Below, one piece after another: positions 8,796-51,950 of a stretch of DNA of 64,000 nucleotides. A program made the position numbers and the translations under genes. Under the pieces are notes generated by a model. It made no database searches. It was not told the origin of the DNA and saw nothing but the letters and a program-made list of their open reading frames with translations. Where the stretch lies: the NCBI GenBank assembly GCA_963811795.1, contig CAWESR010000001.1, positions 13,344-77,343 of the forward strand. Reading direction: 5' to 3'. Within the stretch, counting starts at the first letter, position 1, and each line of letters starts with the position of its first letter. Source of the stretch: an uncultured Alphaproteobacteria bacterium (GTDB lineage Bacteria > Pseudomonadota > Alphaproteobacteria > Rhizobiales > Xanthobacteraceae).

Positions 8796-9854
8796 TTAAT
8801 TCGTCAGCATGATGCGGCCGACGACCTTGCCTGCACGCAATTGATCGATCCATTTCTGGACATCGGCCATTGGCTCTTGCTGCATCGGTGTTGGCTTGAT
8901 CTTGCCGGCACGTGCCAACGCCATCAGTTCCTGCGCTTCCGTGAGCGTGCTTGTCATGAAGCCTTCGATGGTCATGCGCTTGTAAATCCACTGCACCATC
9001 GGCAGATTGAAATTTCCGCCCATCAGGCCCGACACCACAATCTTGCCACCGCGCGCCAGCACTGACATGGCAAAAGCCATCGATTTCTCGTTGCCGGCGA
9101 AATCGACAACCCCGTCGAAGCCGCCTTCGGTTTCCTTGACAATGCGTTTGGTAATATCGGCTTCCGATGGATCGTAAGCAATCGATGCACCGTTTTTCAG
9201 AGCAGTTTCGCGCGCTGAAGCGTTCAAGTCCGCCACCGAAATTTTCTGTTTGAACATCGCTTGTGCGAACGCAAGTCCCATCATGCCGACGCCGCCAAGT
9301 CCGATCAGCAGGAGATTGCGTTGGCGGGGACGATCGACGAGTCTCTTTAACGCGCCATAGGCCGTAGCGCCCGAGCACATGAGAGTGGCGGCCATCTCCA
9401 CCGGCAGCGGATCATATTCAAGCAGATATTTTGCATCCGGCACCAGGACGTGGCTCGCGAATCCGCCATCGATAGACACGCCGAGGAAACGATTGCGCGA
9501 GCAGAGATTTTCATCGCCGTTGAGGCAGTCGGTGCACTTTCCGCAACCGATCCACGGGAACACGGCGCGCTTCTTCCCGATCAAGCTTTTGTCGGCTTCG
9601 GGACCAACTTCTTCGATGATCCCGGCGATCTCATGCCCGAGCGTGAACGGAAGCGTCATGCCGCGCGTGGTGTCGAGCTTCTTGCCGCCGCCGAGATCAG
9701 CATAACCATCCTGGATGTGCAGATCGGAGTGGCATAATCCGCAACATGCAATACGCACCAGAACTTCGCGCCCTTGGGGCTTGGGGGTTTCGATAATGGT
9801 TTCGCAGAGCGGCGCATCGAATTTCACGAGCGACTGGCGGCGCATCACGGTCAT
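8796..9854 (-). CDS. zinc-binding alcohol dehydrogenase (MDR family)
   Basis: CHSDLH, GHE, CGKCTDC...C, GLGGVG motifs; start MTVMRRQ after RBS aagggg. Confidence 0.92.
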   Translation of the reverse strand: MTVMRRQSLVKFDAPLCETIIETPKPQGREVLVRIACCGLCHSDLHIQDGYADLGGGKKLDTTRGMTLPFTLGHEIAGIIEEVGPEADKSLIGKKRAVFPWIGCGKCTDCLNGDENLCSRNRFLGVSIDGGFASHVLVPDAKYLLEYDPLPVEMAATLMCSGATAYGALKRLVDRPRQRNLLLIGLGGVGMMGLAFAQAMFKQKISVADLNASARETALKNGASIAYDPSEADITKRIVKETEGGFDGVVDFAGNEKSMAFAMSVLARGGKIVVSGLMGGNFNLPMVQWIYKRMTIEGFMTSTLTEAQELMALARAGKIKPTPMQQEPMADVQKWIDQLRAGKVVGRIMLTN

Positions 9855-9867
9855 ATCAATTTCCCCT

Positions 9868-10731
9868 TTAAATGCTTTTGTCTTTTCCTGTTTTATCCGC
9901 CAATTCGCGTGCCATGGCAACAAAGCCGGAAACGGGAATGGTTTCAGCGCGGCGTGTCGGGTCGATACCGGCGGCAGCTGTGAGCGCTGCTGGATCGAGT
10001 CCAAGGGATTTCAGGCTTTGCCGCAGCATTTTGCGGCGCTGGCCAAAGGCGGCGGCAGTAATACGCTCCAGCGTGCGTTGATCGCATGGATCGGGCATTG
10101 GGCGCGGGATCAGCCGCACAACGGATGATGTCACCTTGGGGGGCGGCATGAACGCGTTTGGCGCGATATCGAACAGGATTTTTGTCTCCGTTCGCCAGTT
10201 CGACAACACGCTAAGACGCCCGTAAGCCTCATCGTTTTCGCGGGCGACGATACGCTCAGCCACCTCACGCTGGAACATGAGTACCATCATCTCGTACCAT
10301 GGCGGCCATGGCTCTACGCTGAGCCAGCCGACTAAAAGCGGCGTCGCAATGTTGTAGGGCAGGTTGGCGACAATCTTGGCGCGTTCGCCGCCGAGATGGG
10401 GGCGCGGGTCGAATGTCATGGCGTCCGCATGCACGATCTCGAGTTTGCCGGGATAATGTGCGGCGATCTCCTGCAGGGCAGGGATGACACGCTCGTCACG
10501 CTCAACAGCGATGACCCGCTTAACCCCCAATGCAAGCAAGGCGCGCGTCAGCCCCCCAGGACCTGGTCCGATTTCAATTACGGTGCAATCCTCTAATGGT
10601 CCTGCTGCGCGCGCGATCCGCGATGTCAGATTGAGATCAAGCAGGAAGTTCTGGCCAAGAGATTTCCGTGCTGACAGCTCATAACGCTGGATGACGTCGC
10701 GCAGCGGCGGAAGATCGTCAATGGCGCTCAT
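9868..10731 (-). CDS. rsmA: 16S rRNA adenine dimethyltransferase
   Basis: [34 protein letters not shown]; start MSAIDDLP overlaps the pdxA stop. Confidence 0.96.
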
Positions 10732-11744
10732 GACTTTGGCGGTGTCACACTCGTCCCGGCCATATGCGCGGCGAGGCGTAGTGCAGCTATGAGGCTCGAT
10801 GGATTGGCGCGCCCGGTGCCTGCGATATCGAAGGCGGTGCCATGGTCCGGTGAAGTCCGGATGAACGGCAAGCCAAGCGTGACGTTGACACCTTCGTCGA
10901 ATGCAAGCGTCTTGATCGGGATCAGCGCCTGATCGTGATACATACAGATTGCGCAATCGTAGGTCTTGCGCGCAGCCTCGTGGAACATGGTGTCGGCAGG
11001 GAGAGGGCCTTTGACATCGACGCCCTCGTTGCGCAGGACAGTAATAGCAGGCGCGATGATGGATTGATCTTCTTTGCCGAACGAGCCGTCTTCACCGGCG
11101 TGTGGATTGAGCCCGGAGATTGCCAGACGCGGTTTTGCAATTCCGAAACGCGTTTTCATATCTGCTGCGACAATGCGGGAAGTTCTGATAATCAGATCGG
11201 TTGTAAGTTGTGCAATGGCGTCGCGCAAAGCCAAATGAATTGTAACCGGTACTACTGCGAGTTGGGGTGACCACAGCATCATGACCGGCTGAGGTGCGAT
11301 GCCATTGACGCTTGCAAGCTCAGCAAGAAATTCGGTGTGGCCGGGATGCGAAAATCCGCTGCGGAAGAGCACGTTCTTGGCAATCGGATTGGTGACGACG
11401 GCACTCGCGCGGCCAGCGGTAACGTCAGTGACAGCCTGACGGATGGATGCAATGGCGGCAGGCGCACTGGTTCCATCCGGGTGGCCGGGCCGGGCGGTGA
11501 TGACGTGGTTGCTTGAAACGACGGGGAGCGCGTCAGCGAACAGGTTTGCAGCATTCTCAGGACTGGCGTCGGCAAGCGGCAGATCAATGCCGAGCATCTG
11601 TGCGCGCCGCGCAAGGAATGCTTTGTCGCCGATGAGATAAAAAGCCGGGATGCCCAGTTCGCGCCTGCGCATCCACGTCGCAATCGTGATATCCGGCCCG
11701 ATGCCAGCCGGTTCACCGATCGTGAGCGCAAGAGGTTTGGTCAT
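10728..11744 (-). CDS. pdxA: 4-hydroxythreonine-4-phosphate dehydrogenase
   Basis: [42 protein letters not shown]. Confidence 0.97.
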
Positions 11745-11775
11745 CCATGACGCCCGATTGTGGGTTCAGATGAAA

Positions 11776-12738
11776 TCATAATTTTTTGCCGGTATCCCCG
11801 GAGCGTATCTCGATCATCATCGTCTTGCGAGCATCCTGCAAATACGACTTGGATTTCGCCTCGAATTTCTCATTGTACAGCTTGTCGCGAGCCTCGCGCT
11901 TCGCCGGCGTGTCGGCGGTTGTCGGCTTCCGGCTGCACAAGGCAACCATTTCGACGCCCTGCTTCGTGACTTCCGGCGGCGTCAATCGCCCGACGGTCGT
12001 CTTGTCCAGCAGCTCCCGCAATGCAGGCGGCAAGTCTGCGGATGTCTTCGTGAGATTGTCGCGGATAGCGGCGTCACGCATTGACCGGAACAGTTCCGCA
12101 GCTTCATCGCAGCTTTGAATCCGGTTGCGTAAGAGCTCAGCTTCCTTGCGCCGGCCTTCGATGGCCGAGGGTGCCGCCCCGCGCGGCACGATCAATACAA
12201 TAGGACGCATCTGATATTCGAAGCTTTCGGACTGAGGCTTGTCACTCGATGATGGTTGGCTGATGGCGGATTGAACATCTTTTTCACCGACGAGCAGACT
12301 TTGCCCAAACCGTCCGCGGACAAGGGTCGTCCACGTCATCTCCGCCTTCACTCGGTTCTTGAGAGTTTCCGGACGGATTCCGCTGTTTTCCAGTGTCTTA
12401 TTCAACTGTTCGGCATTCATGCGCATCCGTGATGCCATTCCGCCAAAGGCTGTGTCGACGTCAGAGGCGGAAAGTTCGATGCCGTACCGCTTGGCTTCCT
12501 TGAGCTTGACCTTGTCGTTGATCAAATCTTCAAGCGTTTCCTGCCGCGTGGGTGTCTTGCGAGTGGTCAATGTCGTCAGCTTGATGCGCTGATCGACATC
12601 GGAGTTGGTGATGGCTTCGCCGTTGACAATTGCCGCCACGGACTGGGCACGCAGGTCCGATCCGTAGGCCGAGACCATCAGAACAACGATCACAACAAAC
12701 GCGAAGTGCGCGAAACGAGAAAGCATTATCGCAATCAT
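11776..12738 (-). CDS. surA: SurA-like periplasmic chaperone (start approximate)
   Basis: AIVNGEAITNSDV SurA N-terminal motif; lptD-surA-pdxA-rsmA synteny. Confidence 0.85.
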   Translation of the reverse strand: MIAIMLSRFAHFAFVVIVVLMVSAYGSDLRAQSVAAIVNGEAITNSDVDQRIKLTTLTTRKTPTRQETLEDLINDKVKLKEAKRYGIELSASDVDTAFGGMASRMRMNAEQLNKTLENSGIRPETLKNRVKAEMTWTTLVRGRFGQSLLVGEKDVQSAISQPSSSDKPQSESFEYQMRPIVLIVPRGAAPSAIEGRRKEAELLRNRIQSCDEAAELFRSMRDAAIRDNLTKTSADLPPALRELLDKTTVGRLTPPEVTKQGVEMVALCSRKPTTADTPAKREARDKLYNEKFEAKSKSYLQDARKTMMIEIRSGDTGKKL

Positions 12739-12833
12739 GGTCAGGCCTGCCATCTTCGTCGATTTAAAAATTTTCAATATCCTTGCTATCAAAGACTTGG
12801 CTGGATTTCAGCATCCAGAAGGATGGTCATTCT

Positions 12834-15323
12834 TTACTGGGTTGTTCCGATTGTTTGCGCAATAGAAGTGCTGCCAATCGTCCGTAGTCCAATCTGCAAC
12901 ATGACACGGTGATCTGTAACGGGGGTCAGGTTGGTTGTGGTCGTATAGGCATAGTCGGTGATGTAGTTGACTGCCATGATGAAGCAATCGTCCACGTAAC
13001 CCGCGCCAACGAGGTATTGATTGACCTTCTGGTTGCTGAGGTCATAGCGCAAGCCACCCGAGACGACCCAGTTTGGCGCGACCTTGATCGATCCAGTGCC
13101 AAGAATGCCTTCACGACGAGTGAGGAAGCCGAGCTCCGGCTGTTGGTCATAGTTGCCATACAGCATACTGACTGACCAGCGGTCGAAGTTGGCTTTACCT
13201 TCCAGTTCGAAGCGGCGAACGTATCCGGTTGCTTCATCCAACCGTACGCGGCTGGAAAGGTTGAAGGTCCTGTTTGGTTGATATGAGATGCGACCGACGT
13301 AATCCGATTTCGCGGTTTCAAGGCCAGTGTCGAGGCCGGTGTTGGTGAGGTCTTGCACGGCAAACGAATTCAAACCGAACAATTGATAGGATTGGCCAAA
13401 CATCACATTGATGGAGCCTCCGTGATCGAATTGCGTCGTCGCCTGGACACCGACGTTGGCGCGGCCACCACCTTCGGTGCGATCCCAGCCGGAAAACTTG
13501 TCAACGCGGAAAAGGTTGCTGTCATCGTAAGTCAGGCTTTGGGCATCTTCATTGGGGAGCCGACCTGCTTGCGCTTCATTGGGACGGATGATGATCTGTG
13601 CGATAGGCTCCAATGTTGTGGTGCCCCAGGGCTGCACGTTGATGAACGGATAGCGATACTCAAGTCCGACCGTTGGCATGATGTGCCCAATTTGGGTCAG
13701 GCCGGTTGCCGTATAGTTTGAAACGCCAGGTTGGTTCGCGATATCCGTGCTGATGAGGTCCGAGCGGATCGAAGCGAATGGCGTGAAGATTTGCCCCATC
13801 GGATCCGTGAACGAGCGACGCCATGCGGCTAGACCGGAAAGCCGGGTGTAGTCACCCGGCACGCCGCGCAGCAAACAGTTCGCGGGATTTTTTGCCGCTG
13901 GATCGGCCGATGTCGGCAAACACAGGCCGGTGAGGCTTGCTTCTGTTGTGATCGGATCGAAGGCAGCAGTATCGCGGCTCAGGCTTGTGAAGTTTGCCTT
14001 GTAGCTGAATTCGCCACCGATCAGATTGCGATTGAGGATATTCGAATAATCGATGACCGGGTGCACAACAGGAATCTGGCTCTGAACGTCAGCTGCCGAA
14101 TATCCCTGAAAGTACATGACGCGCCCGTCGAAGTAGCTACGATTGCCCACGCCGGTGAGATAGATTTGTGACAGCCCGGTATCGGGCACCAGTAGAAATG
14201 AGCTGAGTGCGTTTTTGTAGGGACCAAGGTTGTAATCCTGGAAGAACGCTTTGTCCGTGGCCGCGACAGCATCCCAGCCCCAGACCCACCTATCGTTCAG
14301 GGCAAATTGGCCCTTTGTGTCCACGCCGCCCCGGAAATCCCGATTGCCTGGCTCGGCGCCGAACTTGTCAGGGTTCTCTTGCTTGATGCCATAGGCGCGA
14401 ATTTCATAAGCGCCATTGATGAGGCGCTGGCGGAACTCGCCCTGCATCAAAACGCCTTGCTGTGTGGTGTAGCGTGGTGTCAGCGTCAGGTCATAGTCGG
14501 GTGCGAGCGCCCAGTAGAACGGCGTTTCCACGCCGACACCGTAGCGCGAGTTCGACATGAAGTCCGGGGTCAGAAAACCTGTCTTGCGCTTTACGGTTGG
14601 ATCGGGAGTCGAAAAATACGGCATGTACGCAATCGGCAAACCGAAGAACTCAAGCCGTGCGTCCTCGAAGTAAAGCATCTTCTCGGTCTGGTTATGAATG
14701 ATGCGCGCGGCCTTCACCTGCCATAGCGGGGGCTTCTTCGGATTGTCCTTGCATGCCGCGCAGGCCGTATAGACACCGTTTTGGAAAATGGTGACGTCGC
14801 CATTGCTGCGGTCTGCGCGTGACGCGGCCATACGGGTCTGATCGGGCGTCTCTAACCGCAATGAATCGACGAAGCCGTCGCGGTAATCATCGCTGAGATC
14901 GAGTGCGACCGCGTTGGTGACCCTGCCGTCGGCGTCGGTCAGGCGGACGCTGCCTTCCGCGTGAAGACGCTTGGTCTTTTGATCGTAGATGACTTTATCG
15001 GCTTCGAGCGTTGATCCGTGGAAGTAGATCTGTACGCTGCCGACCGCGGCCACGCGGGAGTTGTTGTAATCGTAATTGACCTCAGCCGCCTGCACGAGCA
15101 TCTGGCCGTCATTGGCTTTGTTGGGGGGCTTTGCAGGCCGAACCGGTGTCGGACGGGGATTGTAGTTATAGCCTTGGGCAGCAACTGGCGATGTTGGGAG
15201 GCCACTCAGCGGTCCTGCCAAAACCAGCGCCAGGCATGCAGGCGCAAGGATGCGATGGCAGCGCAAACGTATGCGCCGCCTGAACGCAGGCGTCAGTCTT
15301 TGGAGGGCGGCGACAATGGCCAC
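12834..15323 (-). CDS. lptD: LPS assembly protein LptD
   Basis: OstA-type N-domain, YTACAAC, DPTVKRKTGFL, PNEDAQS, YVDDC; GTG start overlaps the lptG stop. Confidence 0.93.
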   Translation of the reverse strand: MAIVAALQRLTPAFRRRIRLRCHRILAPACLALVLAGPLSGLPTSPVAAQGYNYNPRPTPVRPAKPPNKANDGQMLVQAAEVNYDYNNSRVAAVGSVQIYFHGSTLEADKVIYDQKTKRLHAEGSVRLTDADGRVTNAVALDLSDDYRDGFVDSLRLETPDQTRMAASRADRSNGDVTIFQNGVYTACAACKDNPKKPPLWQVKAARIIHNQTEKMLYFEDARLEFFGLPIAYMPYFSTPDPTVKRKTGFLTPDFMSNSRYGVGVETPFYWALAPDYDLTLTPRYTTQQGVLMQGEFRQRLINGAYEIRAYGIKQENPDKFGAEPGNRDFRGGVDTKGQFALNDRWVWGWDAVAATDKAFFQDYNLGPYKNALSSFLLVPDTGLSQIYLTGVGNRSYFDGRVMYFQGYSAADVQSQIPVVHPVIDYSNILNRNLIGGEFSYKANFTSLSRDTAAFDPITTEASLTGLCLPTSADPAAKNPANCLLRGVPGDYTRLSGLAAWRRSFTDPMGQIFTPFASIRSDLISTDIANQPGVSNYTATGLTQIGHIMPTVGLEYRYPFINVQPWGTTTLEPIAQIIIRPNEAQAGRLPNEDAQSLTYDDSNLFRVDKFSGWDRTEGGGRANVGVQATTQFDHGGSINVMFGQSYQLFGLNSFAVQDLTNTGLDTGLETAKSDYVGRISYQPNRTFNLSSRVRLDEATGYVRRFELEGKANFDRWSVSMLYGNYDQQPELGFLTRREGILGTGSIKVAPNWVVSGGLRYDLSNQKVNQYLVGAGYVDDCFIMAVNYITDYAYTTTTNLTPVTDHRVMLQIGLRTIGSTSIAQTIGTTQ

Positions 15324-16405
15324 TACCCGTCCTCCTGATACAGCAAAGCCAAAAATCCGGAGAGGCCACCTACGAAAACAGGCAACCACGCCGCCGCGAG
15401 CGGATGCATCAATTCAGCCTTGCTCAAATCCTCGGTTACTTTCGATAGGACATAGAGCAAAAAGCCAGCCGCAACGCCACTCAAAACCATCTTTTGAACA
15501 CCGCCGAAGCGGAAGAAGCGAAGGCTCACGGCAGCCGCCAGCAACACCATCGCAGCCAGCAAAAATGGGCGTGCGAGCAGCTTTTGATACTGCAAGCGAT
15601 AACCAGCCGTGGCTTGTCCGGAGTTTTCTGACGAGCGGATGTAGCCCGGCAGTTGCCAAAATGACACAGTTTCAGGTGTGGAAAAACTGTTCCTGACCTG
15701 AGCAAGGGTCAAACTCGTTCCGAGGACGTAAGTCTCTTGCTCAACCATCGGACTGTCCAGAGCGAAGCGCCGGACTTTTTTGAAGACCCACTGCCCAGGT
15801 TCCAATGATGCTTCACGCGCCTCGATTCGCTCTTTGAAGGGACCCGCAGGGTCGTACCTAAACACCGTCAAGCCGCTCAGCCGAAGTCCTTGCTCCTGAC
15901 TTCGCACAGCATTGATGATGGTCTGTCCTTCGCTGGTGGTCTGGTTGATCCAGAATCCAGCTGCATCCTGCAGTCCACGATCAAGAAAGATTTTTGTCTC
16001 CATTTCCTTGGCGCGTTCTTGCATGCCTGCGGAAAGGGGATTGTAAACAGCAGTCGCCAGCAAGCCGAGCGCGAGCGCGCTCAAGAGCGCTGGAGCGATG
16101 AATTGCCACGCGGATATTCCCGCAGCTCGCGCTACGACTAACTCTAACCGCCGCGACAGCGTGAGATAGCAGGACATTGCGCCAATCAGGATGCAGAACG
16201 GCATCAACCGCTCCAATGATAGCGGTACCCGGAAAAGCGAAGTTTGTGCGACGAACAGCGCCGACACGGAGGCAATGCTTGCGGCACGACGCATCAACTC
16301 GATGTAGTCGACAAGAATGATCAGAACAAAAATGCTCACGAAGACAGCGATGGAAGCCACCACAAAACGGCTGGCGAAGTAGCGTGCGAGGACAGTTGTC
16401 ATCAT
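15323..16405 (-). CDS. lptG: LPS export ABC transporter permease LptG
   Basis: LSRRLELVVARAAGISAWQF, multiple transmembrane segments, AAAWLP. Confidence 0.92.
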   Translation of the reverse strand: MMTTVLARYFASRFVVASIAVFVSIFVLIILVDYIELMRRAASIASVSALFVAQTSLFRVPLSLERLMPFCILIGAMSCYLTLSRRLELVVARAAGISAWQFIAPALLSALALGLLATAVYNPLSAGMQERAKEMETKIFLDRGLQDAAGFWINQTTSEGQTIINAVRSQEQGLRLSGLTVFRYDPAGPFKERIEAREASLEPGQWVFKKVRRFALDSPMVEQETYVLGTSLTLAQVRNSFSTPETVSFWQLPGYIRSSENSGQATAGYRLQYQKLLARPFLLAAMVLLAAAVSLRFFRFGGVQKMVLSGVAAGFLLYVLSKVTEDLSKAELMHPLAAAWLPVFVGGLSGFLALLYQEDG

Positions 16406-16418
16406 GGGCGCCGCCGCT

Positions 16419-17580
16419 TCATGCTGACACCGGCCGTGGGGTAAAGCGCGCGACCCAACCATTGATGAACTCCATCAACATGGTTGGCGCTTCGATCACG
16501 ACGCCACTTGAAATAATCCAGATGCCGCCGCAGCAAGCTGTCGCCAATATAAAATATTGGATCGGAGCGGCGAGCGGCGACGAGGCGGCCAGAACGGAGC
16601 ATGCAAAGCCAACAAATCGCAAGGCGCTGATGGCCAGGACTGTGGAGGCGATCGCAAAGCCCCGGCTTTGGCGGGTCGTGCGCGGCGCGCCGAGAAATGC
16701 AAATGTCAAAATAACGAAGGCGAACGGATAGAGCGGCGCAACAATACGATCATGAAATTCGGCGCGGAATTGTCCCGGCGATTGCATGAACAAAGGATCG
16801 TTGGCAGGTGGCGAGATCAGCTCCCAGAAGTAGCGTTCGCGAACATTGTAGTTCACGTTCTGCGTGAGCTTGGCATATTTCGACATGTCGAACGCATGGC
16901 GTCCGAAGGCGACGAGGATGGGGTCACGCTTGCCTTCCTCGAACCGTTGAAAGTTGCCGTTGTCGAGCACGAGGAATGTGCCGGTATCGTTTTTCAGGAC
17001 AGTGCCTTGCTCAGCGATGATGGTGATCCGTTCCTTTGGATCGCGACGATCGTCGACAAAGATGCCGGCCAATTGACCGCCAGGGCGGCGTTCGCGCACC
17101 CGCAACGTGAGATTGGAATCAAGCTGCGTGAAACGTCCCGGCACAAGAATGTTGGAGATGATGTCCGCGGTGATCTCGGTGTCCCAGCGTTTCAGGCGGC
17201 GCATGCCATCGGGGGCGAGATAGGCCGCGATGAAAGCAACCATCAGGGCGACGACAATCGTTGCATACATGAATGGACGGAACAGCGCCCATGGTTGCAT
17301 CCCTGCGGCATTCATCACGATGATTTCTGAAATCATGTGCGAGTTTGTTGAGGGTGTGTGCGACTGCAATCACGAGCGCTATCGGCGCGATCACAAGCAC
17401 CAGAAGCGGAATGGCCAAGCCTGTCACGCCGAGAAACACCAAAATGGTCTGACCCTGGCTGGTCATCAGGTCGATGCCGCGCAACGCTTGCGTGATCCAG
17501 ATCACGCCCGTCAGGCTGACCAAGACCAACGCAAACGACGCAAGCGTCGTCCGGAAAATATAGGCGTCAATCGACCCCAT
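16419..17580 (-). CDS. lptF: LPS export ABC transporter permease LptF (frameshift near 17330)
   Basis: MGSIDAYIFRTT...LNKLAHD in one frame, SEIIVMNAAG... in the next. Confidence 0.9.
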
Positions 17581-45246: not shown

Positions 45247-45283
45247 GGGGTGTGGATGCGGGCTGAGGCACCCGACTATCCCT

Positions 45284-45320
45284 CGTCATGGCCGGGCTTG
45301 ACCCGGCCATCCACGTCTTT
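45284..45320. repeat. CGTC-type REP element
   Basis: cgtc-atggccggg-cttga-cccggccat-ccacgtcttt, resembling the REP units common in Bradyrhizobiaceae. Confidence 0.7.
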
Positions 45321-45651: not shown

Positions 45652-45670
45652 ATCAGTCATTTTGACTGAT
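45652..45670. promoter_or_regulatory. palindromic operator candidate
   Basis: atcagtca-ttt-tgactgat in the AT-rich divergent intergenic region. Confidence 0.5.
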
Positions 45671-45700
45671 TTCGTATTTATCGAGCAAAAATATCTATAT

Positions 45701-45931
45701 ATGACAAAAATGTCAATATCCCCTGCGCAATGCCGGGCCGCCCGTGCCTTGATCGATATGGGGCAGGCTGACTTGGCGGCAGCGGCTGGCGTGTCGCGGA
45801 ATGTCATTGTCGATTTTGAAAAGGGACGCCGCACACCACATCAAAACAATCACGCTGCGATCCAACACGTATTGGAAAAAGCAGGTGTTGAATTCACGGG
45901 TGGTGCGAAACCAGGCGTGCGATTGAAGTAG
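45701..45931 (+). CDS. XRE-family helix-turn-helix regulator
   Basis: ISPAQCRAARALIDMGQADLAAAAGVSRNVIVDFEKGRR, LEKAGVEF...GVRL. Confidence 0.85.
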   Translation: MTKMSISPAQCRAARALIDMGQADLAAAAGVSRNVIVDFEKGRRTPHQNNHAAIQHVLEKAGVEFTGGAKPGVRLK

Positions 45932-47277: not shown

Positions 47278-47409
47278 TTTCCACCATAGTGATCAAAGTA
47301 AAACTAATAGGTGAGGGCTTTTAAGAATTGTATTTTAATACATAGCTCGTCTACCTTAGCTCGCATTCACCCTTCACGATCACCTCACCGCGCGCGATAT
47401 CGGCTGCCC

Positions 47410-47529
47410 TCACGAACACTCCGTCGTGCTGCCACACGCGGTGCACTTCATGCAGGTGCCGTTGCGCACAAGGGTGAAGTTGCCGCACTCGGAGCACAGA
47501 TCCCCCTCGTAGGCTTTCGCCTTCGCTTC
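47410..47529 (-). repeat. direct repeat, copy 2 of the nrdJ 3' end
   Basis: 103/120 nt identical to 48200-48319 by manual ungapped alignment. Confidence 0.93.
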
Positions 47530-48189
47530 CTTGTCTAATCTTTGTTGCTCGATATCCAAGCTGGTAATTTTAGCGCCGCCTTTTTTCGCATTTTCAAGAA
47601 AGCTGACAATACTTTTTGGTAGAGGACGTGGAAGATTGTGAGCGCGTCGATAAAGTCGTTGAAGCTCCTCGAGTTTAATTTCTGCGGCCCTCGTGCTAAG
47701 TCCAAAACGATCAGCAAGATCGCTGGCATGTGCGAGTAATGGATTTCCTGCCAAATAAAGTGGAGCGAGAAATGCCGCCGCGAATTTATCAGCGTCGCTT
47801 TCGTCCCGCATTATCGAAGGTGCGATTTTCTCAATCGGCCGGCCAGATATGTTGCGGTGACGAGTTTTCTTATGTCCAAAAACGACATGGCCTAACTCGT
47901 GAGCAATTGTGAAGCGCGCGCGTTTCGTTGCCGGATTCTGGTCAATAACTTCATTTGCTGCTACGAATGTACTCTCGCGAAGGCGCATTATTCGTCTGTC
48001 AGGATCGAATGCTCCGAGATCCTCTGGCATTTTATGGTCGGGGACTTTTTCGTAGCTGGCAATCATCCCGAGTTGCTGGAGCTTGAATAAGACCGTGACC
48101 ATATCTGGCTGCAACTGGTGTTCAATGCCCAGTTTTCGCCGAGTAGCTCGCGCAACTTCTTCAAAATCTTCGTCTTCGCGATGTCTCAT
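47410..48189 (-). CDS. ImmA/IrrE (M78/DUF955) family metallopeptidase fused to a copy of the NrdJ C-terminal Cys-rich tail
   Basis: [10 protein letters not shown] (HEXXH), [12 protein letters not shown]; ends [39 protein letters not shown]; ATG at 48189 with RBS gaagggg. Confidence 0.88.
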
Positions 48190-48199
48190 TGTTGCCCCT

Positions 48200-48319
48200 T
48201 CACGAACACCCCGTCGTGCTTCCACACGTGTCGCACTTCATGCAGGTGCCGTTGCGCACCAGGGTGAAGTTGCTGCATTCCATGCACATGTCGCCCTCGT
48301 AGCCTTTGGCCTTTGCTTC
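48200..48319 (-). repeat. direct repeat, copy 1 (native nrdJ 3' end)
   Basis: encodes [39 protein letters not shown]. Confidence 0.93.
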
Positions 48320-51300
48320 CGCGCGGCGTTCGGCTTTCTGATGGCGCTGGCTGCTGCGGCTGATCCGCCTTGCTCCAGCCTTGGGCTTCCAGCTTTTCGG
48401 TCGGAGAGAGTTCGCGCTCCGGCTCTGCGGTTTTCAGCGCGGTTGCGCCTTCGGCCACGTCACTGTGCCGCGCGGTCGCGCCGCTTGACGCAATCGCGGT
48501 GATGTTGCTGGCCGCGCGCGCATCAAGGTCCGCGCCGCCGCGCATCACCACGAGCTTGTCGGTGCGTGAGCGGGTGAGGCCCTTTGAGAGATATTTCGTC
48601 GCGGCGGCGTTGCTCTCTTCCGGAGCGCGGCCTTCCTCGACTCCCTTGCCAAGCGCGTCGAACTGTCCTTCGGACGGATCGACATGGGCGAGATCGAAGC
48701 GCGACATGTAGCTTACCGCGAGTTCGCGGAACACGTAGTCGAGGATCGAGGTCGCGTACTTGATCGAGTCGTTGCCCTGCACCGGACCCGCAGGCTCAAA
48801 GCGGGTGAAGGTGAAGGCATCGACGTATTCCTCCAGCGGCACGCCGTATTGCAGGCCGAGCGACACCGCGATGGCAAAGTTGTTGATGAAGGAGCGCAGC
48901 GCCGCGCCTTCCTTGTGCATGTCGATGAAGATCTCGCCGATGCGGCCATCGTCATATTCGCCGGTGCGCAAATAGACCTTGTGTCCGCCGACCACAGCCT
49001 TCTGCGTATAGCCCTTGCGGCGGTCCGGCAGCTTCTCGCGCTCGCGCATCACGACGATGCGCTCGATGAGTTTCTCGACGATCTTCTCGGACACCTGCGC
49101 GGTACGTGCCGCCATCGGCTTGTCGTAGAACGACTCGATCGCGTCATCGTCCTCCTCCTCGTCGGCAGATGAGCTGCGAATTCAGCGGCTGCGAGAGCTT
49201 CGAGCCATCGCGGTAGAGCGCGTTGGCTTTCAGCGCCAGTTTCCACGAAAGCAGGTAGGCGGATTTGCAATCCTCCACCGTGGCATCGTTCGGCATGTTG
49301 ATGGTTTTGCTGATCGCGCCCGAGATGAATGGCTGCGACGCCGCCATCATGCGGATGTGGCTTTCCACCGAGAGATAACGCTTGCCGATTTTGCCGCAGG
49401 GATTGGCGCAATCGAACACGTTGTAGTGCTCGGCCTTGAGATGCGGCGCGCCTTCCACCGTCATCGCGCCGCAGATGTGCACGTTGGCGGCTTCGATCTC
49501 GCGCTTGGTGAAGCCAAGGGCAGTGAGCAGGTCGAAGTTGGCGCGGTGAGGGCCTCGAGGCGATGCCGAGATTGTCGCGGATGAAATCTTCGCCGATCGT
49601 CCACCTGTTGAACACGAACTTGATGTCGAACGCAGTCGGCAGTGCCTTCTCGATCTTGGCAATCGATCTCGTCGGTGAAGCCTTTGGCCTTCAGCGTCGA
49701 ATGGTTGATGCCGGGCGCTTGCGCCAGCGAGCCGTGGCCGACTGCGTAGGCCTCGATCTCGGCGATCTCGCTCTCGCGATAGCCGAGCGTGCGCAAGGCT
49801 TCGGGCACGGCGCGGTTGATGATCTTCCAGTAGCCGCCGCCGGCGAGCTTCTTGAATTTCACCAGCGCGAAATCAGGTTCGATACCTGTGGTGTCGCAGT
49901 CCATCACCAGGCCGATGGTGCCGGTCGGCGCCACCACCGTGGTCTGCGCGTTGCGGAAGCCGTGTTGTTTGCCGAGTTCAAGCGCCTTGTCCCATGCGGC
50001 CTTGGCGTGCGTGACGATGTCGGCCTGCGGGCAGCTTGCATGATCGAGCGGCACGGGGCTGACTGACAGCGCTTCATAGCCCGAGGCCTCGCCATGCGCG
50101 GCACGGCGATGGTTGCGGATCACGCGCAGCATGTGGCTCGCGTTTTTCTTGTAGCCGGGAAGGTGCCGAGCTCCTGCGCCATTTCGGCGGAGGTTTTATA
50201 GGCAACGCCGGTCATGATCGCGCTCAGCGCGCCGCACAGCGCGCGGCCTTCCTTCGAATCATAGGAAAGGCCCATGGTCATCAGCAGGCCGCCGATGTTG
50301 GCGTAGCCAAGGCCGAGCGTGCGGAATTCATACGAGAGTTCGGCAATGGCTTTGGATGGGAATTGCGCCATCATCACCGAGATTTCGAGCACGACAGTCC
50401 AGAGCCGGCAAAGATGCTCATAGGCTTCCACATCGAAGCGGCGTGCGGTCGATGTCGTAAAACGTCAGCAGGTTCGCCGAGGCGAGATTACATGCCGTGT
50501 CATCGAGGAACATGTATTCGGAGCAGGGGTTCGATGCGCGGATGTCGCCGGACGCCTTGCAGGTGTGCCAGTCGTTCATCGTGGTGTTGAAGTGCAGGCC
50601 GGGATCGGCGCTCGCCCATGCGGCGTAGCCAATCTTTTCCCACAGGTCGCGGGCCTTCAGCGTCTTCATCACCTTCTTGCTGGTGCGGCCGATCAAATTC
50701 CAGTCGCCGTCGGTCATCACCGCGCGCAGGAAGTCGTCCTTCAACGACACCGAATTGTTCGAGTTCTGGCCGGCGACGGTGAGGTAGGCTTCTGAATCCC
50801 AGTCGGTGTCGTAGGCATCGAACTGGATTTCGGTGTAGCCCTGCCGGGCAAACTGGATCACCCGCTTGATCATGCCGTCGGTGACCAATGCACGGCGCGC
50901 GAACTTGATCTCGCGGCGGAGTGCGGGGTTTTTCTCAGGATCGAAGCAGTCGTCGCCCGAGCCTTCGCAATTCACGCAGGCTTTCAGAATAGCCTTGAGG
51001 TGTTTCTGGTTGATCTTGGAGCCGGTGACGAGGGCTGCAACTTTCTGTTCTTCCTTCACCTTCCAGTCGATGTAGGTCTCGATATCCGGGTGATCCGCAT
51101 CGACGACCACCATCTTGGCCGCGCGGCGTGTGGTGCCGCCGGATTTGATCGCGCCCGCCGCACGGTCGCCGATCTTGAGGAAACTCATCAGGCCGCTTGA
51201 GCGGCCACCGCCGGATAGCTTTTCACCTTCACCGCGCAGACGGGAGAAGTTGGAGCCGGTGCCCGAGCCGTATTTGAACAGGCGCGCCTCGCGCACCCAC

Positions 51301-51950
51301 AGGTCCATGATGCCGCCCTCGTTGACGAGGTCGTCGTCCACGCCCTGAATGAAGCAGGCGTGCGGCTGCGGATGCTCGTAGGACGATTTCGACTTGGTGA
51401 GCTTGCCGGTTTTCCAGTCCACATAGTAGTGACCCTGTCCCGGTCCATCGACGCCGTAGGCCCAATGCAGGCCAGTGTTGAACCATTGTGGTGAGTTCGG
51501 CGCGACCATCTGCTTGGCCAGCATGAAGCGCAGTTCGTCATGGAAGGCGTGCGCGGCTTCTTCGGAGGTGAAATAGCCGCCCTTCCAGCCCCAATAGGTC
51601 CAGCAGCCAGCGAGGCGGTCGAACACCTGCTTTGACGACTGTTCGCTACCGAAGCGCTCAGATTCGGGCAGGGCGGCAAGCGCTTCGGTGTCTGGTACCG
51701 AGCGCCACAGCCATGACGGCACGGTCTCTTCCTCGACCTTTTTCAGAATCTTGGGAATGCCGGCTTTACGAAAATACTTTTGAGCGAGCACATCGGAGGC
51801 GACCTGCGACCAGAACTCAGGCACTTCAACGTCTGCAAGATGGAAGACCACCGAGCCGTCGGGGTTGCGAATTTCACTGGTTGTCAGGCGGAATTCGATT
51901 GCCGCGTAAGGTGACTGACCGTCTTTTGTATATCGCCGTTCGATTCGCAT
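48200..51950 (-). CDS. nrdJ: vitamin B12-dependent (class II) ribonucleotide reductase with TSCPD-type domain; at least 6 apparent frameshifts
   Basis: MRIERRYT start, [61 protein letters not shown]; indels near 50448, 50156, 49668, 49550, 49168, 48340. Confidence 0.93.

Follow-up and report, generated by a model that had tools for sequence, protein, structure and literature searches.

A one-gene cassette closed by a second copy of the nrdJ 3' end, and what may bring small modules behind nrdJ

Introduction

How does a small gene come to lie directly behind a housekeeping gene, bracketed by two copies of that gene's own end? The question is raised by a stretch of 64,000 nucleotides (here the window) from an uncultured alphaproteobacterium of the Xanthobacteraceae (GenBank assembly GCA_963811795.1, contig CAWESR010000001.1, positions 13,344 to 77,343 of the forward strand), part of an assembly of 2.05 Mb in 16 contigs which is 67% complete. 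In the window nrdJ, the gene for the class II (B12-dependent) ribonucleotide reductase, is followed at once by a gene for a zinc metallopeptidase of family M78, and the last codons of this second gene are another copy of the nrdJ tail. An interpretation made from the letters alone (the sequence-only reading) had proposed an integrase-free cassette, anchored on the homology of the nrdJ tail, which entered by Campbell-type integration of a small circle, left nrdJ intact and came under nrdJ transcription. We examined the locus, its relatives in 400 genomes of the bacterial family and the structure of the predicted peptidase. The window cassette is one case of a pattern seen across the bacterial family, and homologous recombination on the tail is the probable source of such cassettes.

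Results

Two copies of the nrdJ tail bracket the peptidase gene

nrdJ and the peptidase gene both lie on the minus strand (Table 1). A repeat search and a blastn self-alignment both recovered a direct repeat of 124 nt, 85.5% identical between its copies, with a longest identical run of 27 nt and a spacing of 790 bp, which confirms the repeats of about 86% identity first reported here. The repeat unit is made of the last 41 nrdJ codons plus the stop. A 24-mer from the tail end, searched with up to three mismatches, has two occurrences in the window, where chance predicts 0.00, and these two are the only copies of the nrdJ tail in the window's own genome. Read along the minus strand, tail 1 ends in its TGA, a short spacer follows, and an ATG then opens a reading frame of 259 codons that ends with tail 2 and a TGA of its own; in most related loci the spacer between the nrdJ stop and the peptidase start measures 7-30 nt. 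Both tails carry the six-cysteine motif of NrdJ at the extreme C-terminus, with the spacing C-x2-C-x9/10-C-x2-C-x2-C-x5-C. The GC content at third codon positions (GC3) is 0.43 in the peptidase body, 0.85 in its tail and 0.82 in the nrdJ tail, so the body is indeed more AT-rich than its tail, as had been noticed by eye, and because this jump falls inside one gene the tail of the peptidase appears to be of recent origin. The 790-bp unit is a one-gene cassette directly after the nrdJ stop, closed by a second nrdJ tail.

A candidate third, degenerate remnant of the tail end lies 22 nt past the stop of copy 2. The repeat search also lists it, as a member of a repeat family. It is weak, as 1.55 matches of this quality are expected by chance per window; short tail-end remnants of this kind are also present in two relatives (G106 and G206).

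Extra tail copies and varied cargo across the bacterial family

We searched the 42-residue tail in 400 genomes of the bacterial family. The nrdJ tail was found in 340 of them, about 20 had two or more matches, and in about 16 an extra copy stood on the same strand as the nrdJ tail, 85-2400 nt further downstream. Bracketed units measure 0.4-1.1 kb and the repeats range from 36 to 160 nt. The cargo differs from locus to locus: a second, distinct M78 subfamily is fused to the tail in six genomes (G440, G390, G147, G225, G144 and G074), a BrnT toxin and its helix-turn-helix (HTH) partner stand between tail copies in two (G234 and G185), a DUF4160/DUF2442 pair does so in G106 (in G119 only the DUF2442 part was identified), and a 160-residue signal-peptide protein of host-like GC content does so in G195. 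In G170 two M78 genes stand in tandem, three tail copies occur in each of G185, G229 and G206, and G297 has a bare tandem tail. The unit of DUF2442 gene plus tail is collinear between two genera. Tail copies which are not fused to a gene are decaying, their cysteines being lost. Two further tail matches, in G251 (contig C2) and G369 (contig C9), were considered as cargo and rejected, both being second nrdJ genes.

The sequence-only reading had expected relatives to show different cargo genes ending in the same tail downstream of nrdJ, and arrays of them; both were found, with two or three copies. It had also named two outcomes that would speak against it, a one-off duplication and fusions lying mostly far from nrdJ. 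Neither is what we see, given the number of genomes with an extra copy, the diversity of their cargo, and a peptidase gene standing directly after the nrdJ tail, usually at a gap of 7-30 nt, in about 32 of the 40 loci with enough upstream sequence.

One locus has a further insert. At L291 (genome G119) an AT-rich insert of 1.5 kb, encoding proteins of 318 and 135 residues, lies between the nrdJ stop and an older, GC-rich unit of DUF2442 gene plus tail; the 135-residue protein looks TIR-like by eye.

Position of the peptidase family and the genes behind it

A protein search returned many homologues of 250-263 residues that align over the full query, tail included, at identities from 83% down to 37%, together with shorter forms lacking the tail. 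The position after nrdJ holds across peptidase bodies whose identity falls from 83% to about 30%, and the basal, tail-less branches of the peptidase tree adjoin nrdJ as the tail-bearing ones do, which means that the position is independent of whether the cargo carries a tail. Together with the insert of G119, these tail-less peptidases indicate that the hotspot is not strictly dependent on the repeat. The family occurs in only 14 of the 400 genomes, spread over 11 genera besides the window's own, and was not found in 36 congeners of the window's genome; it is sporadic in distribution and fixed in position. A broad scan of genome contigs with the peptidase alignment was swamped by M78 genes of a general kind, and only two loci in it were relevant.

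The genes behind the peptidase vary. At L197 the peptidase is followed by an operon of a cyclic-oligonucleotide-based anti-phage signalling system (CBASS; CD-NTase, E2-like protein and patatin) and then by genes for a HipA-type toxin and a small HTH protein, at L015-L018 by a TIR-type PDC-M50 pair, at L198 by an OLD/AriAB-like ATPase and two genes without an assigned role, and at L200 by a DUF499/DUF1156-methylase/SNF2 cluster which we presume to resemble the Mza system. No cargo follows it at L123 and L125.

Two side observations concern the family itself. The L200 contig (peptidase P0045) starts with the last 33 nt of the nrdJ tail, continues with a gene for a 264-residue CHAP-domain protein and then with the tail-bearing peptidase, an array with another gene between nrdJ and the peptidase. 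A large subgroup of peptidases stops right after the catalytic domain, and the helical C-terminal part resumes past one in-frame stop, which is TAG, TGA or TAA depending on the genome (L107 in G302, L108 in G324, L111 in G220, L112 in G362, L021 and L022, with many proteins of 148-152 residues, P0057-P0090); this could reflect a conserved split, read-through or repeated decay.

Exchange between tail copies

Peptidase tails are 80-90% identical to nrdJ tails and 70-79% identical to each other (84% in one closely related pair), and the low identity from tail to tail holds even between peptidases which are 82% identical as proteins. The tail at L197 bears residues specific to its genus; it matches the nrdJ tail of another species of that genus at 91%, where the range within the genus is 74-92%. 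In a tree of 117-nt tails each peptidase tail stands beside nrdJ tails of its host lineage, and an approximately unbiased (AU) test rejected a single clade of five peptidase tails (p=0.016). Repeat pairs can be mosaic: in G195 the first 62 nt of the two copies agree without a difference and all 11 differences fall in the following 75 nt, and at L197 identity drops from 94% over the 5' half to 69% over the 3' half. The grouping of peptidase tails with host nrdJ tails and the mosaic pairs point to recombination between tails and to repeated exchange, and the GC3 jump inside the window's peptidase gene points the same way.

A third mosaic pair lies on a metagenome contig of 1124 nt (L121), where a tail-less peptidase gene is framed by two fully identical (100%) 104-nt stretches of nrdJ tail at the two contig ends. 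Diverged nrdJ-like sequence lies upstream of its second copy, which, to judge from the contig end, departs from nrdJ after the core; the contig fits a circular molecule or a very recent stretch of repeat, unique sequence and repeat. In the window's distal copy nrdJ-like sequence flanks the identical core on both sides.

The tail as an island of homology

Alignments of nrdJ 3' ends fall into zones: the TSCPD domain at about 90% identity, a linker of about 400 nt at 30-70%, the tail at 72-94%, and intergenic DNA which is not conserved. The linker is hypervariable even within a genus, as seen in about ten relatives (L010, L014, L255, L259 and others). The tail is an isolated island of about 125 nt of homology across genera, which meets the need of a homology-dependent process for a landing site and explains the length of the repeats. 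In at least six independent loci a full-length distal copy begins no more than about 25 nt from the point where the conserved block starts; this and the mosaic cores count in favour of a Campbell-type route. Relatives' homology to the window ends exactly at the nrdJ stop, and when congeners without the cassette were compared for an empty site, homology ended there in every pair; the intergenic DNA after nrdJ is too diverged for empty sites to be defined between species. A search for breakpoints in nrdJ upstream of the tail was uninformative because of the hypervariable linker.

An M78 peptidase with an NrdJ zinc ribbon

The peptidase matches Pfam PF06114 at 33.7 bits (cut-off 22), its best PADLOC match is capP (9.2e-14), and H97, E98 and H101 are invariant across 45 homologues. 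An AlphaFold2 (AF2) model built with these 45 homologues has a mean pLDDT of 84.6, and in Foldseek it finds CapP (7t5t, E 2.2e-4), PprI (8sln, 5e-4) and IrrE (3dte), with a TM-score of about 0.41 over about 180 residues. The modelled peptidase domain and central helical, HTH-like domain are arranged as in CapP and IrrE, and with CapP, IrrE (PprI) and ImmA (M78, COG2856; repressors CapH, DdrO and ImmR) the protein shares an HExxH domain and a helical HTH-like region. CapP and IrrE consist of peptidase, HTH-like and GAF domains, and their form bound to single-stranded DNA (ssDNA) cleaves a small XRE repressor (bioRxiv 10.1101/2022.04.27.489752). Unlike them, the 259-residue window peptidase has no C-terminal GAF domain, which holds the ssDNA groove of CapP and IrrE; residues ~219-259, at which the protein ends, instead form a zinc ribbon of two short strands (pLDDT ~60) that is derived from NrdJ. 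It also differs in being co-directional with nrdJ and lying close behind it, where CapP is divergent from its defence operon, and in that an adjacent HTH partner is missing in several loci of nrdJ-linked peptidases. A further likeness is that relatives of the window peptidase head defence systems, the CBASS operon among them, as CapP does (bioRxiv 10.1101/2022.04.27.489752). Neither this paper nor a second one on CapP mentions a zinc ribbon or a ribonucleotide reductase, and in the searchable literature we found no description of cassettes bracketed by nrdJ tails or of CapP-like peptidases with an NrdJ zinc finger.

In the C-terminal finger of NrdJ the cysteines C1, C2, C4 and C5 bind zinc, whilst C3 and C6 form a redox pair that shuttles electrons (Loderer et al. 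2017, PMC5704485), and the spacing in copy 1 is that by which the cysteine-rich domain is defined there. The peptidase tail has the same six-cysteine pattern and a near-identical sequence. It differs from the finger of NrdJ in being attached to a peptidase, and most fused copies have lost the redox pair and keep the zinc ligands only: among 36 peptidase tails chosen by the four-cysteine pattern, in which the zinc ligands are thus kept by definition, C3 is kept in 8 and C6 in 12. The six cysteines of the window's tail 2 would fit a recent origin or a recent conversion. Judged from these patterns of conservation, tail 2 appears to be more than a scar, namely a translated zinc-ribbon domain under selection in a large peptidase family, and two M78 subfamilies seem to have retained a recombination scar as a structural zinc ribbon. 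Possible roles of the ribbon are to stand in for the GAF sensor, to dock on NrdJ or its reductant, and to bind nucleic acid.

The peptidase is probably translated from the nrdJ transcript. The spacer is only 10 nt and purine-rich, which makes expression of the cargo from nrdJ plausible; a scan of the minus strand from nrdJ to the gene for a 436-residue protein behind the peptidase for promoter and terminator consensus gave nothing decisive. By its likeness to CapP the window peptidase is probably a switch for the genes of the island that follows, and its likeliest substrate would be the small HTH protein encoded there. Candidate repressor partners are this HTH_3 gene, 1.5 kb away on the opposite strand, and at L197 a gene for a 90-residue protein without a family match; no candidate HTH repressor was found near the peptidase at L198 or L123.

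Tyrosine recombinases

The cassette had been described as free of an integrase. We surveyed tyrosine recombinases (serine recombinases and transposases were not surveyed) and found none on the window's contig (C1) and none on the nrdJ contig in 10 of the 12 tail-repeat genomes checked, which upholds that description. Genome-wide only two tyrosine recombinase genes were found in each of G195, G206 and G000, the counts for G206 and G000 being lower bounds because these assemblies are incomplete (72% and 67%); the two are probably XerC and XerD. DDE transposases are present at some loci.

The state of nrdJ in this assembly

The sequence-only reading held that the cassette leaves nrdJ intact, and in this assembly that is not so. 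With an intact orthologue of 1250 residues as query, tblastn gave seven collinear nrdJ pieces in alternating frames, 66-97% identical and without internal stops; the gene is readable only with six frame switches, one of which separates the TSCPD domain from tail 1. The second gene for a ribonucleotide reductase large subunit in the genome (contig C4, 19615-21221) is also split, over two frames, and in a related population one long-read assembly has an unbroken copy of an nrdJ locus that three others show as split. Other long genes of the window are unbroken, for example that for LptD (851 residues), and a suspicion of broken genes at 8796-17369 was rejected, the region holding seven separate, intact genes. 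The frame breaks are probably consensus errors, a conserved gene in a long-read metagenome bin recruiting reads of several strains; the alternative is a true pseudogene, that is, real decay. The short contigs of four public read runs, the best run sharing 22% of the sequence words, gave two 151-nt pieces on the peptidase and nrdJ pieces of other organisms; they showed no joint, circle or empty site and did not settle the frameshifts.

The low-GC island behind copy 2

Copy 2 is followed by a low-GC island (Table 1). Homologues of its 436-residue protein, at 62-75% identity, occur in alpha-, beta- and gammaproteobacteria (Microvirga, Bradyrhizobium, Pseudomonas, Klebsiella, Xanthomonas, Burkholderia and others), and by its spread it looks like a typical mobile defence or effector gene. 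Soil-run contigs over the REP-like element at the far end reach depths from hundreds to above 14,000 and have unrelated flanks, which marks it as a very abundant dispersed repeat.

Table 1. Features of the nrdJ-peptidase locus and the island behind it (positions in the window)
Feature	Position	Strand	Remarks
nrdJ, class II (B12-dependent) ribonucleotide reductase	48200..51950	-	Seven frame pieces; Pfam Ribonuc_red_2_N, Ribonuc_red_lgC and TSCPD on successive open reading frames (ORFs)
Repeat copy 1	48197..48320	-	nrdJ tail, last 41 codons, six-cysteine zinc finger; TGA 48202-48200; 3 nt beyond
Spacer AGGGGCAACA	48190..48199	-	10 nt from nrdJ stop to peptidase ATG; purine-rich; candidate ribosome-binding site
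M78 (ImmA/IrrE/CapP-type) zinc metallopeptidase, 259 residues	47410..48189	-	ATG 48189; HELGH at residues 97-101; last ~41 codons are repeat copy 2; TGA 47412-47410
Repeat copy 2	47407..47530	-	Tail in frame with peptidase; all six cysteines retained; GC3 0.85
Candidate third, degenerate tail-end remnant (..TCGTGAAGG)	47371..47385	-	22 nt past copy 2 stop; 2 mismatches in 15
Coiled-coil/transmembrane protein, 436 residues	45967..47277	-	Low-GC cargo following copy 2; no Pfam family above cut-off
Small XRE-type HTH protein	45662..45931	+	Pfam HTH_3, 8.2e-06, 26.2 bits; probable ATG near 45704; convergent with 436-residue gene; candidate repressor partner
ORF, 102 residues	45326..45634	-	No family match; last gene of low-GC island
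REP-like (repetitive extragenic palindromic) hairpin element	45283..45320	.	End of low-GC island; 37-nt exact match in a relative

Discussion

Repeats of the nrdJ tail, cargo of several kinds between them and exchange among the tails are common to the window and its relatives, and we consider it probable that homologous recombination on the tail, by one of two routes, generates these cassettes. The tail would serve as the block of homology for a RecA-type recombination that brings small foreign modules behind nrdJ, the incoming module duplicating or displacing the resident tail. Afterwards the copies would exchange sequence by gene conversion and could delete the cargo between them. In the peptidase lineages the distal copy appears to have been recruited as a C-terminal zinc ribbon, at the place where CapP/IrrE-like proteins have their GAF domain, and the peptidase would probably cleave a small HTH repressor and thereby regulate the defence or toxin cargo behind it. 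The anchoring of cassettes on tail homology, as first proposed, is largely borne out by the variety of cargo, the arrays and the exchange between tails, but tail 2 is not a mere anchor, being translated as a zinc ribbon. The Campbell-type step, in which a circle or a terminally redundant fragment with tail and cargo enters by one crossover, we take as the likeliest route, at somewhat less than an even chance: direct repeats do flank varied cargo, yet the circle is unproven and a one-sided exchange fits the repeats equally well.

That one-sided exchange would join a homologous crossover inside nrdJ to an illegitimate join near the resident tail, pushing the tail downstream without a circle, much as in the C-terminal displacement of rhs genes. 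Distal copies keep the exact nrdJ 3' end and vary in their 5' extent from 30 to 137 nt, in G144 a congener's nrdJ tail shares 83% identity with the distal copy and 77% with the proximal one, and in G119 the new module stands beside nrdJ with the older one pushed outward, all as displacement would have it. Random illegitimate joins should, however, scatter, and the full-length distal copies start in a narrow cluster; the identical cores with diverged flanks, seen on the upstream side at L121, need a crossover or conversion inside the tail anyway, and any upstream breakpoint is hidden by the hypervariable linker. We regard displacement as somewhat less probable than the Campbell-type step. Less probable again is site-specific recombination within the nrdJ tail by an integrase supplied in trans, which would make the cassettes integrase-less, cis-mobilisable remnants or Xer-dependent modules. 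It would explain why every copy has its 3' boundary at the stop codon, and why tyrosine recombinase genes lie near the repeats in G074 and G144; toxin-antitoxin (TA) pairs such as BrnT/BrnA are typical of Xer-dependent dif modules. The likeness extends to islands and cis-mobilisable elements that integrate at gene 3' ends, in which direct repeats of the gene end also flank foreign DNA, the target is left complete and units accrete in tandem. What separates our loci from these is the lack of a tyrosine recombinase on most nrdJ contigs, units of only 0.4-1.1 kb, and nrdJ homology upstream of the identical distal core (window and L121), which is unexpected for an attR site. The three genomes with two tyrosine recombinases each, the variable repeat length, the absence of further tail repeats near the integrases of G074 and G144, and the tail's poor match to the E. 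coli dif site (8 of 11 XerC-arm positions by eye, with a poor XerD arm) weigh the same way.

The remaining alternative dispenses with mobility: a single ancient duplication gave an ancestral peptidase its NrdJ zinc ribbon, and the tails stay similar through shared constraint and codon bias. Large tail-bearing clades exist whose tails diverge with the protein (the tail of P0055 is 48% identical to the neighbouring nrdJ tail), and the four zinc ligands are conserved. Against it stand the unfused, decaying tail copies behind cargo of unrelated kinds (TA pairs and a secreted protein among them), the same fusion in a second M78 subfamily, tail states scattered over a peptidase tree whose tail-less basal clades already adjoin nrdJ, the grouping of peptidase tails with host nrdJ tails under the AU test, and the GC3 jump with the recent tail origin it implies. 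As a full account it is very improbable and largely refuted.

Several points weigh against recombination on the tail as the source of the cassettes. No circle, empty site or strain-level polymorphism was seen, the public runs offering short contigs only, and RecA would recombine repeats of 124 nt and 85% identity only inefficiently. Where the distal copy is partial its 5' end varies (30-80 nt), which displacement or subsequent deletion explains better than a plain Campbell integration does. Many tail-less peptidases of the family stand behind nrdJ, the AT-rich 1.5-kb module of G119 arrived at the same spot and left no detectable tail copy, and the AU test for the three closest peptidases is borderline (p=0.048). 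In G074 a truncated integrase gene, that of a tyrosine recombinase, lies 1.4 kb after copy 2, and in G144 one lies 12.6 kb away. A search of viral contigs found no close relative, and hence no sign of carriage by phage.

The nearest known concepts are the C-terminal displacement of rhs genes and the minimal mobile elements of Neisseria. In rhs and contact-dependent inhibition (CDI) loci, as in the Neisseria elements, modules are taken up without an integrase through homology in conserved genes, and displaced 3' fragments pile up downstream in direct orientation. Unlike those systems, the anchor here is a housekeeping enzyme whose old and new tails have the same function, and the cargo consists of independent genes, not toxin tips, one displaced tail having become a domain of a cargo protein.

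Our broadest proposal is held tentatively: the nrdJ tail may be a landing pad that needs no dedicated recombinase, used by a pool of cassettes of one or two genes (for regulatory peptidases, toxin-antitoxin pairs or defence starters) which carry the tail, move between genera, integrate through RecA and are expressed from the nrdJ transcript. With like reserve, this might be seen as a gene capture resembling that of integrons but working without an integrase, at an essential gene that responds to DNA stress and that also donates a zinc-ribbon domain to its cargo. If this is true, homology alone can turn a short, conserved piece of a housekeeping gene's coding sequence into an attachment site. 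It would account for the spread and turnover of small defence and toxin modules that have no mobility gene of their own, and it offers a concrete example, open to testing, of gene capture helped by homology in soil alphaproteobacteria. It would also mean that a protein domain was born from a recombination scar, the zinc finger of a ribonucleotide reductase replacing the GAF sensor of CapP/IrrE-type regulators, and that regulators of defence are tied physically, and perhaps transcriptionally, to the ribonucleotide reductase gene.

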